Positions 5,953 through 7,358 of a stretch of 64,000 nucleotides of DNA are shown here, piece after piece (the first letter of the stretch is position 1; the number at the start of each line of letters is the position of its first letter). The translations under genes and the position numbers were made by a program. The notes beneath the pieces were generated by a model that ran no database searches, had not been told where the DNA came from, and saw nothing but the letters and a program-made list of their open reading frames with translations. Source of the stretch: Candidatus Zixiibacteriota bacterium (GTDB lineage Bacteria; Zixibacteria; MSB-5A5; UBA10806; 4484-95); NCBI GenBank assembly GCA_037441845.1, contig JBBIRK010000006.1:148880-212879 (forward strand), in the 5' to 3' direction.

Positions 5953-6139
5953 GGTATTTCCGCCGACATCGCCTATACTTCGACATAATCCGGCCCTGAA
6001 AATTGTGCCGTTCGAAACGGTTTGGCTTAGGCAATAATCCTTAGAATTTAACCTCGCAATATATATGTTATTTTTAAGTCCGGAACGAAAAATACCTGCG
6101 GAATATTGACTGTCATTGTGAAAAAAATAACGAAATCTA

Positions 6140-6168
6140 TTGACTTTCATCGCGCCGCGAAATAATAT
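6140..6168 (+). promoter_or_regulatory. Sigma-70-like promoter candidate for the QmoC-like gene (-35 TTGACT 6140-6145, 17-nt spacer, -10 TAATAT 6163-6168). Flanked upstream by the perfect palindrome TGACTGTCA (6107-6115).
   Basis: Direct reading of the 280-bp intergenic region. There are three TTGAC half-sites at 6106, 6140 and 6173, roughly 33-34 bp apart. The RBS AAGGAG sits 8 nt before the GTG start at 6234. Confidence 0.3.
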
Positions 6169-6233
6169 TCCATTGACAGCGGCCGTTTGATTTCGGCCGT
6201 TTTCGGGGAACCGTTTCAACAAGGAGATCGCCC

Positions 6234-7358
6234 GTGGCTCAAAGCAATATCTTGGAACCCGATCTGAATTTCATAAGGGAGATCAAAAAATCAGGCGGCG
6301 CCACCCTTAAAAAATGCTACCAGTGCGCCACTTGCTCGGTCGTCTGCAATCTTTCACCGACGGATGGTCCGTTTCCCAGAAAAGAAATGATCTACGCCCA
6401 ATGGGGCCAAATCGACAAACTCGTCGGCGATCCCGACCTTTGGCTTTGTTATCAGTGCAACGATTGCTCGACTCGTTGTCCCCGCGGCGCCCGTCCCGGC
6501 GATGTGCTGGCCGCGATCAGAACCTATATATACAAGCATTATTCCTTTCCCCGTTTTATGGGTAAAGCTGCCTCGAGCCCCGCGGCGTTGCCGTTGCTTT
6601 TAATCGTTCCCGCGCTGGTCATTACCGCCTTGATGCTTGCCTATACGGGCGCCGATTTCAGTTTTATGAATCGGCAGATCAGGTTCGGGGATTTTATCCC
6701 CCACGGCTGGATCGAGGGGTTGTTTATCAGCGGCAACGTGCTGATTTTCGCTTTCGCTTTCATAGGTCTTCGACGATTTTGGAACGCATTGCAGAAAAAC
6801 AGCTCGACCCCCCGGCGCAGCTCGTTCATATCGAGCCTGATCGCGACTATCATGGGTATCATAAGCCACTCCAATTTCAACCGTTGCGAGGCGAACCGGC
6901 CGCGCTATATCGCTCATATGCTGGTGTTTTTCGGATTCATTGGGGCGATGGCCACCGCGGGCCTGGCGTTGCTGGCGATGGTTTTCATACATCTTGATCC
7001 TCCTATTCCTCTGTCTCACCCGATAAAATGGCTGGGGAACGCCTCGGGTTTCGCCGGTGTCGCCGGTCTGGCGATAATGATCGGCAGACGGCTGTCCGGC
7101 AAAGACAAAGTCGGAGCCAATGGCTATGCCGATTGGCTTTTCCTGATTATGTTGTTTCTAGTGTTCGCCACCGGACTATTGTCACAGTTTTTCCGATTGG
7201 CCGAGACGCCGATATCGGCTTACTCCATATATTTCGTTCATTTGCTCGTAGTGTTTTTCCTGCTCTGGTATGCGCCTTATTCGAAATTCGGCCACATGTT
7301 TTATCGTTCAATCGCCTTGGTGCATTCCCACAGTATCGGCAGGAAAGCGAAAACGTAG
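6234..7358 (+). CDS. qmoC: QmoC-like protein: N-terminal HdrC-like 2x[4Fe-4S] domain fused to a C-terminal HdrE/NarI-like haem b membrane domain.
   Basis: The N-terminus has CYQCATCSVVCNLSP and CYQCNDCSTRCPRG ferredoxin motifs. There are six or more hydrophobic helices. The C-terminal NarI-family signature is WYAPYSKFGHMFYR. The size (374 aa) and architecture match QmoC. The GTG start has a good RBS. Confidence 0.65.
   Translation: MAQSNILEPDLNFIREIKKSGGATLKKCYQCATCSVVCNLSPTDGPFPRKEMIYAQWGQIDKLVGDPDLWLCYQCNDCSTRCPRGARPGDVLAAIRTYIYKHYSFPRFMGKAASSPAALPLLLIVPALVITALMLAYTGADFSFMNRQIRFGDFIPHGWIEGLFISGNVLIFAFAFIGLRRFWNALQKNSSTPRRSSFISSLIATIMGIISHSNFNRCEANRPRYIAHMLVFFGFIGAMATAGLALLAMVFIHLDPPIPLSHPIKWLGNASGFAGVAGLAIMIGRRLSGKDKVGANGYADWLFLIMLFLVFATGLLSQFFRLAETPISAYSIYFVHLLVVFFLLWYAPYSKFGHMFYRSIALVHSHSIGRKAKT

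Follow-up and report, generated by a model that had tools for sequence, protein, structure and literature searches.

An uncoupled qmoC gene in a Zixibacteriota sulfate-reduction gene cluster and a candidate regulon that would join it to sat-aprBA and qmoAB-dsrAB

The 64,000-nt stretch of DNA analyzed here (positions 148,880 to 212,879 of contig JBBIRK010000006.1, GenBank assembly GCA_037441845.1, Candidatus Zixiibacteriota bacterium; hereafter the window) contains an open reading frame (ORF) at 6234–7358 on the plus strand that is, as judged from its sequence, a genuine qmoC, encoding the membrane subunit of the quinone-interacting membrane oxidoreductase (Qmo). We consider it probable, at roughly 70%, that this gene has long stood outside the qmoABC operon with a promoter and an operator of its own, and that it is switched together with sat-aprBA and qmoAB-dsrAB by one regulator, for which a Rex-type protein is the best candidate. 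The coordinates of the features are summarized in Table 1.

Identity of QmoC and its separation from qmoAB

The product of the ORF consists of 374 amino acid residues, and its GTG start codon is located 7 nt after a Shine-Dalgarno sequence. The NCBIfam equivalog model for QmoC (NF038018, type I QmoABC) matched it with 432 bits against a cutoff of 300, and residues 9–364 covered the complete model (1–360 of 360). The HdrC model gave 55 bits (cutoff of 160), and Pfam yielded nothing more specific than di-cluster ferredoxin domains of a generic kind and a weak NarI-like stretch. TcuB/CitB proteins and other HdrC-HdrE-type fusions have the same domain order, and Pfam CitB (PF27541) is among the precomputed domains of homologs; however, the TcuB models reached 66–69 bits with cutoffs of 247–524. 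These scores argue against a grouping with non-Qmo HdrCE fusions, an outcome for which the original prediction had allowed.

The HdrC-like N-terminal domain contains two CxxCxxCxxxC motifs (C28/31/34/38 and C72/75/78/82), and the protein has about six hydrophobic segments, four histidine residues (H212, H228, H336, and H354), and the C-terminal end WYAPYSKFGHMFYR. In an alignment of 83 QmoC sequences, all eight cysteine residues and all four histidine residues were at least 99% conserved. This pattern is as expected from the sequence for two [4Fe-4S] clusters and two bis-histidine hemes b, the cofactors reported for QmoC, which connects the menaquinol pool via QmoAB to adenosine 5′-phosphosulfate (APS) reductase (PMC3333476). 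The exact QmoC architecture that had been assigned to the protein from the sequence alone was thus confirmed. A database search returned 4336 homologs, many of them labeled QmoC by their sources. When PDB sequences were searched with the QmoC of the window, the matches were HdrC chains only, covering residues 10–107, and no solved QmoC structure was found.

A distance of 21,264 bp separates the ends of qmoB and qmoC, and the two genes converge from opposite strands. A 362-bp spacer without an ORF lies between qmoB and dsrA (27054–28259, minus strand), and the genes downstream of qmoAB are dsrA, dsrB, dsrD, dsrN, a DsrL-like gene, dsrC, dsrT, and dsrMKJOP, followed by the gene of a Pyr_redox protein and heme/siroheme genes. 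The arrangement originally described, in which qmoB runs into the dsrA leader without qmoC and the QmoC-like gene is found 21 kb away on the other strand, is therefore correct. Neither a QmoC paralog nor a further HdrA-like gene was found in the window, and no hdrBC, hdrD, or qmoC was found beside qmoAB. The DsrK-like and TmcB-like CCG proteins of the window are each paired with a cytochrome b gene of their own. The genes for DsrD, DsrN, the DsrL-like NAD(P)-binding protein (PRK12771, 576 bits), DsrC (ending in PTGCV), and DsrT (RsbRD_N) lie together at 21519–25921 (minus strand), downstream of reductive-type dsrAB.

Similar to QmoC of Desulfovibrio, which is encoded in an aprBA-qmoABC operon (Pires 2003; Ramos 2012), the protein combines an HdrC-like di-cluster domain with an HdrE-like diheme cytochrome b (PMC3333476), and the partners with which it occurs in the pathway, sat, aprBA, and qmoAB, are the same. 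In contrast to Desulfovibrio, qmoC of the window is situated outside the qmoAB operon, 21 kb off, convergent, and with its own predicted promoter, and qmoAB is joined to the dsrAB transcription unit.

To place this arrangement among relatives, one genome per species was scanned, and the 80 best loci were mapped by tblastn with the window proteins. qmoC was solitary in about 25 related loci of metagenome-assembled genomes (MAGs) assigned to Zixibacteriota, Ignavibacteria-labeled genomes, Latescibacterota, and others. The closest QmoC homologs, those of loci L001 and L089 (88% and 83% identity, respectively), had the same neighbors as in the window. At 64–69% QmoC identity, qmoC was solitary and divergent from sat-aprBA, followed by small genes, heme genes, and dsrPOJK, and at about 46–69% identity, 22 loci had qmoC divergent from sat (Zixibacteriota, Ignavibacteria-labeled, Latescibacterota, Gemmatimonadota, and GN15 MAGs). 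QmoCs with 47% identity or less, mostly from Nitrospirota, Thermodesulfovibrionales, and Desulfobacterota-type MAGs, were nearly all encoded in the canonical aprBA-qmoABC order (40 loci). A few mapped loci showed the order qmoC-qmoA-qmoB, qmoBA divergent from qmoC, or CxxC-qmoC-dsrAB. In a neighbor-joining tree labeled with these contexts, which was midpoint-rooted without an outgroup or support values and was used for grouping only, the window and L001 nested inside the clade of the 22 loci with divergent sat and qmoC. In the lineages just outside this clade, qmoC adjoined qmoAB in the order CAB, BA divergent from C, or ABC.

Two relatives had both ends of the arrangement on one contig, namely the Zixibacteriota MAG DeMMO2_6 (46.6 kb) and a Joint Genome Institute (JGI) contig (138.8 kb). 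On both contigs the order was qmoA-qmoB-dsrABDNLC-dsrT-dsrMKJOP-Pyr_redox-heme genes, convergent qmoC, and sat-aprBA; the distance between qmoB and qmoC was 19.8 kb on the DeMMO2_6 contig, with a similar spacing on the JGI contig. Because the same order was found in these two relatives, the separation of qmoAB and qmoC by about 20 kb across a dsr-heme supercluster is probably ancestral to the group. Specific to the window, compared with these relatives, are the position of sat-aprBA beside qmoA and the block of regulator genes beside qmoC. A single inversion of about 6100–28600 that split an ancestral qmoABC was considered and set aside, as sister lineages show qmoC-qmoA-qmoB, qmoBA divergent from qmoC, and sat divergent from qmoC; these several orders suggest more than one rearrangement in the history of the genes. 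Across 46 loci, the identities of QmoC and QmoB to the window proteins co-varied (Pearson r = 0.86; Spearman rho weaker, at 0.48), which suggests that QmoC shares its history with QmoB.

As judged from these gene orders, an uncoupled qmoC is the normal state in this clade, and a variant of the layout has already been published. In 'Ca. Thermonerobacter thiotrophicus' and an Ignavibacteria MAG (GWB2), sat-aprBA is followed by two hypothetical genes and qmoC, and qmoAB is found elsewhere (Thiel et al. 2019, PMC6338057). This organism resembles the one studied here in being a putative sulfate reducer of the FCB (Fibrobacteres-Chlorobi-Bacteroidetes) group with qmoC apart from qmoAB, in having dsrD together with dsrL, and in a second dsrMK pair, and two of the mapped loci (L021 and L047) show its layout. 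It differs in that its qmoC ends the series sat-aprBA-hyp-hyp-qmoC, whereas qmoC is divergent from sat in the Zixibacteriota-type clade; in the window, moreover, qmoC stands behind a response-regulator gene and sat-aprBA has moved next to qmoA. An 89-residue zinc-finger-like ORF (CPHCGK...CFNDECPYY; 36570–36839, plus strand) was observed between aprA and a CxxCxxCC-domain gene, and its counterparts in relatives match Pfam Ogr_Delta. This ORF and the CxxCxxCC gene probably correspond to the two 'conserved hypotheticals' after aprA in PMC6338057.

A conserved 18-bp element at the predicted promoters of qmoC, sat, qmoA, and dsrA

A promoter scan detected a −35 and −10 pair upstream of qmoC, and 25 non-redundant sequences from upstream of qmoC share CTTGACA-N17-TATnAT in the corresponding position. 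qmoC very probably has its own sigma-70-type promoter, from which it would be transcribed separately with a start near 6175. In L001, L003, and L004, qmoC is followed by a cytidylate-kinase-like gene, of which the window keeps only a frameshifted 3′ part, so that qmoC is predicted to be monocistronic in the window. The first about 180 codons of the cytidylate-kinase-like gene (about 540 bp) are missing immediately behind the qmoC stop codon.

Directly upstream of CTTGACA-N17-TATnAT, an 18-bp element, TTGTGAAAAAANTAACAA, is conserved in 25 independent qmoC promoters. The 25 non-redundant sequences align as (A)C-W-TTGTGAAAAAANTAACAAAA, 3–6 nt, and CTTGACA-N17-TATnAT, and the 18-mer is almost invariant, with an invariant left half, although the QmoC proteins are 46–88% identical. 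Almost every locus with a solitary qmoC had the element, in the form TGTGAAAAAANTAACA, 96–127 nt (about 100–125 nt) ahead of the start codon, and the element was absent upstream of operon-internal qmoC genes. A position weight matrix (PWM) built from these sites gave 7 matches of at least 8 bits in the window versus 0.83 in shuffled sequences, and six of the seven were intergenic. Besides the qmoC site, these included sites upstream of sat, qmoA, dsrA, and the operon of the HTH_17 regulator.

When sequence of related loci (about 1.3 Mb) was scanned, sites scoring 18 bits or more preceded qmoC in 25 cases, sat in 21, and the regulator operon in one; two of six further high-scoring sites preceded qmoA, and none of all these sites was inside a mapped gene. 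One or two such sites preceded sat in most related loci. In L086 and L087, the counterpart of the qmoA site closely follows the −10 box, at 71–73 nt before qmoA. The dsrA-leader block recurs unchanged in L090, a relative with 90% identity, and is conserved in the Zixibacteriota contigs L086 and L087. Since qmoC, sat, qmoA, and dsrA share one type of site, coordinated rather than independent control is suggested. In the qmoB-dsrA spacer, a second promoter-like site with an extended −10 (TTGATT-16-TG-n-TATAAT; 28536–28563, minus strand) was observed upstream of the TTGACT box associated with the operator-like copy, and its −10 region and the sequence just upstream are conserved in L090. dsrA may thus have two promoters besides read-through from qmoAB.

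The motifs on which separate control of qmoC had been proposed in the original prediction, the palindrome TGACTGTCA, three TTGAC half-sites, and TTGACT-N17-TAATAT, are all present, and the promoter pair is well conserved. The palindrome, however, is a 9-mer that 11 of 100 shuffled versions of the window contained one or more times. The TTGAC copies are located at 6106, 6140, and 6173, and their triple spacing occurred in none of 100 shuffles; they do not stand ahead of the promoter as proposed, since the middle copy is the −35 hexamer itself and the third is at the predicted transcription start. In L001 and L089, which keep the same synteny, TGACTGTCA and the first and third TTGAC are replaced by unrelated sequence. 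Of the separate transcription and regulation that had been put forward, an own promoter is therefore retained, and control through TGACTGTCA and TTGAC gives way to the shared site, which points to coordinated control. A hairpin in the predicted 5′ untranslated region was also considered as an attenuator and rejected (fold z-score of −1.1; hairpin present in L001 and absent in L089; T-run not conserved), and an Rfam scan of the whole window at the gathering thresholds returned no known riboswitch or leader.

The candidate regulator and alternative explanations

The generalized Rex operator is TTGTGAANNNNTTCACAA, as quoted from Ravcheev 2012 in PMC5317091 and PMC6391272, and a Rex site of Staphylococcus aureus is TTGTGAAW4TTCACAA (PMC2883068). 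When the Rex consensus alone was used with at most three mismatches, eight matches were obtained in the window versus 2.2 expected, a number reached in none of 100 shuffles. With at most two mismatches, it identified 24 upstream sites of qmoC, 14 of sat, two of qmoA, and two of dsrA in the related loci, compared with roughly four matches expected by chance according to our own arithmetic; about a dozen further matches were scattered, two of which are the L089 qmoC site and the L090 dsrA site. In Desulfovibrio vulgaris, Rex represses sat (PMC7531388), and D. alaskensis mutated in rex shows derepression of qmoABCD, sat, adk, and ppaC, with further predicted sites at dsrABD, apsAB, and dsrMKJOP (PMC4045070). 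An NADH-sensitive binding of Rex to the site, together with derepression in a mutant, is known for Desulfovibrio only (PMC7531388, PMC4045070). This regulon (Ravcheev 2012; Christensen 2015; Kuehl 2014, PMC4045070) shares with the window an 18-bp TTGTGAA-N4-TTCACAA site, sat and qmo targets, and more than one site upstream of sat. Sites of the window differ in being asymmetric, with TAACAA or TYACAT as the right half, in carrying an A-tract, and in lying upstream of the −35 at qmoC and dsrA. The pattern of the element, taken together with the Rex targets of Desulfovibrio, suggests that a distant lineage has a regulon of the same kind, and a Rex-type sensor of NADH/NAD+ is, on this analysis, the best candidate for the regulator, as for sat and qmoABC in Desulfovibrio.

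Several points weigh against the proposed explanation. A phmmer search with the Rex of B. subtilis and the CRP of E. coli as queries matched no rex or crp/fnr gene in the window or in 90 related loci (1.42 Mb; ORFs of at least 100 residues, E of at most 1e-3), and no CRP/FNR or Rex domain was detected among the window ORFs scanned with Pfam and NCBIfam. At the qmoC site, the right half (TAACGA) accounts for all three mismatches to the Rex consensus; the site is directional with an invariant A-tract, and is centered near −50, upstream of the −35, which is not the classical position of a repressor site. HcpR-type regulators of the CRP/FNR family bind identical sites in Desulfovibrio (PMC5701242). 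Finally, the absence of a second qmoC and of hdrBC applies to 64 kb of the genome.

The regulon could be shared and the 18-bp element nevertheless be a site of the CRP/FNR family (HcpR-like), perhaps for an activator, or its conservation could be due in part to an A-tract UP element; we regard this as a minor but real possibility. The element has the core of CRP/FNR-type sites, TGTGA-N6-T(A/C)ACA, the sites bound by HcpR1 and by Rex in D. desulfuricans are identical (PMC5701242), and the failure to find a rex gene points in the same direction, as does the location at qmoC and dsrA, where the element with its invariant A-run lies upstream of the −35 at a distance at which the C-terminal domain of the RNA polymerase alpha subunit and UP elements act. 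On the other hand, all 25 sequences have A7 of TTGTGAA, which is likewise invariant in Rex sites and which CRP-type sites do not require; the qmoA site just downstream of the −10 box in L086 and L087 and the sat copy in the promoter spacer of the window are at repressor-type positions; and a recurrence at +5 to +70 of other promoters would not be expected of an UP element. A center at −50.5 is also off-phase for classical class I or class II activation by CRP, which counts against a CRP/FNR-type site. It appears very unlikely that qmoC is controlled independently of qmoAB by the local regulators, of DVU0259 or HTH_17 type, through TGACTGTCA and the three phased TTGAC. The motifs exist with their unusual triple spacing, and the two regulators are encoded directly upstream in a block conserved in L001 and L089, but the loss of TGACTGTCA and of the outer TTGAC copies in these same two loci, the chance frequency of the 9-mer (11% of shuffles), the role of the middle TTGAC as the −35 hexamer, and the lack of a DNA-binding domain in the DVU0259-type protein all argue against this control.

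A different question is whether QmoC serves QmoAB at all. QmoAB could be a soluble bifurcating or confurcating module without a membrane anchor, with QmoC as an independent quinol-oxidizing module for another partner, much as the alternative offered in the original prediction had it for an HdrA-type partner. qmoC never adjoins qmoAB in this clade, Gram-positive sulfate reducers have Qmo complexes without QmoC (PMC3333476, PMC10504309), and one proposal for the mechanism of Qmo is a confurcation that involves a third partner (PMC3333476). We nevertheless judge this highly improbable. The QmoAB-HdrBC and QmoAB-HdrD systems of Gram-positive sulfate reducers and some sulfur oxidizers likewise have no qmoC after qmoAB, but these QmoC-less organisms have hdrBC or hdrD beside qmoAB (PMC10504309), whereas the window has neither there and encodes a canonical QmoC in the same supercluster. 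In addition, the window contains no other HdrA-like gene, one type of operator is found at the promoters of qmoC, qmoA, and sat, QmoC co-diverges with QmoB as described above, and sister lineages retain qmoC beside qmoAB. We also find it improbable that QmoC acts as a shared quinol-oxidizing membrane module, docking QmoAB and a second partner from the supercluster, such as the DsrL-like NAD(P)H oxidoreductase or the Pyr_redox-rhodanese protein. The promoter-operator cassette is more conserved than the QmoC protein, and two docking partners would explain why qmoC is always transcribed alone.

Neighboring genes, proposed mechanism, and significance

Table 1. Features around qmoC, qmoAB, and sat-aprBA; positions are those of the window
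Feature	Position	Strand	Remarks
PAS histidine kinase	637–2058	−	
TmcB/HmcF/DsrK-like CCG iron-sulfur protein fused to DVU0259-type receiver	2086–3825	−	
TmcC/HmcE-like cytochrome b	3828–4517	−	
HTH_17/MerR-like protein, Cys-rich receiver-like C-terminus	4581–5411	−	
Operator-like element TTGTGAAAAAAATAACTT	5421–5438	−	Upstream of HTH_17-regulator operon; PWM 21.0 bits; conserved in L001
Stand-alone DVU0259-family response regulator	5578–5952	+	NF045717 121.6 bits (below cutoff of 160), Pfam Response_reg; directly upstream of qmoC
Palindrome TGACTGTCA	6107–6115	.	Single copy; judged not functional
Operator-like element TTGTGAAAAAAATAACGA, Rex-consensus-like	6116–6133	+	6 nt upstream of qmoC −35; PWM 31.9 bits; 3 mismatches to TTGTGAANNNNTTCACAA
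Predicted qmoC promoter, −35 TTGACT, 17-nt spacer, −10 TAATAT	6140–6168	+	Promoter scan
Leader hairpin CGGCCG-N8-CGGCCG, then TTTT	6180–6203	+	In predicted 5′ untranslated region
Shine-Dalgarno AAGGAG	6221–6226	+	7 nt before GTG; identical in L001, GAGGAG in L089
qmoC coding sequence	6234–7358	+	HdrC-like di-[4Fe-4S] domain and cytochrome b membrane domain; NF038018
Cytidylate-kinase-like remnant	7362–7636	+	Frameshifted 3′ part; tblastn of L001 product matches residues 181–271 only, two frames
Half-degenerate copy TAATGAAAAATTTCACAA	28448–28465	−	qmoB-dsrA spacer, 8 nt upstream of TTGACT box; 9.5 bits; 2 mismatches to Rex consensus
qmoB	28622–30859	−	HdrA-type matches; closest database homologs named QmoB by sources; presumed cytoplasmic partner of QmoC
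qmoA	30861–32156	−	HdrA-type matches; presumed cytoplasmic partner of QmoC
Operator-like element TTGTGAAATAATTAACAA	32228–32245	+	72 nt upstream of qmoA start codon; PWM 28.6 bits; 1 mismatch to Rex consensus
Weaker sat copy	32405–32422	+	PWM 14.0 bits; inside sat promoter TTGACA-N17-TACATT (32395–32423)
Operator-like element TTGTGAAAAAAATAACAA	32484–32501	+	103 nt upstream of sat; PWM 34.2 bits; 2 mismatches to Rex consensus
sat-aprB-aprA	32604–36263	+	NCBIfam sat and aprA equivalogs; divergent from qmoA here, from qmoC in most relatives

The response regulator upstream of qmoC, which has no DNA-binding domain according to Pfam, is also the neighbor of qmoC in L001 and L089. The four genes on the other side of it (637–5411, minus strand) form an operon with an operator-like site upstream, and this block is conserved in the same two loci. 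The second of the four products in Table 1, the CCG protein fused to a receiver, would be an unusual, phosphorylatable HdrD-like redox protein.

Beyond sat-aprBA, a 225-residue protein with two DsrC-like stretches (tandem DsrC) is encoded in the region 37712–41526 (minus strand), where it adjoins the second DsrK-like/DsrM-like pair, and a Rex-consensus-like site with three mismatches is located just upstream of the DsrC-like gene (38446–38463). The perfect palindrome TGTGATTTCATTCACA (41822–41837) and a second, weak site (41688–41705) are present in the spacer before the plus-strand genes at 42072–46825, which encode a PPDK_N-like protein of 849 residues, a CBS protein, and a Na+/sulfate symporter. 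In L086 and L087, this trio of genes stands directly upstream of qmoA, where a sensor kinase and a response regulator are encoded between them. The three genes may belong to the same regulon, as judged from the sequence.

We propose the following course of events. qmoC would have left the qmoABC operon long ago in an uncultured, Zixibacteriota-like lineage of the FCB group, and would have come to stand at the far end of a dsr and heme-biosynthesis supercluster of about 20 kb, convergent with qmoAB. The units sat-aprBA, qmoC, and qmoAB-dsrAB, and the promoter internal to the last, at dsrA, would each be an autonomous promoter-plus-operator cassette, and these physically separate units would most likely be switched together by one DNA-binding regulator, whose identity and sign of action we infer. 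Regulon membership would travel with the cassette, and rearrangements that split the genes of one complex would therefore be tolerated. Monocistronic qmoC would be transcribed from about 6175, and its product would enter the membrane and receive QmoAB, which would hand electrons to AprAB. The passage of electrons from QmoAB to AprAB is established for Qmo of Desulfovibrio (PMC3333476).

Knowledge of Qmo itself is unchanged by these results. For the interpretation of genomes, however, they have a practical consequence: surveys of MAGs in which 'qmoABC' is scored from the operon context could miscall Zixibacteriota-like genomes as lacking QmoC, and a non-energy-conserving APS reduction step would then be inferred wrongly for organisms in which the subunit is encoded about 20 kb away. 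One type of 18-bp operator appears to join sat-aprBA, qmoC, qmoAB, and dsrAB in one regulon, which probably senses NADH/NAD+, and such a shared operator would explain how the subunit genes of a single complex can be rearranged and yet stay coordinated. The strongly conserved operator-promoter cassette defines a candidate sulfate-reduction regulon in Zixibacteriota-like bacteria.

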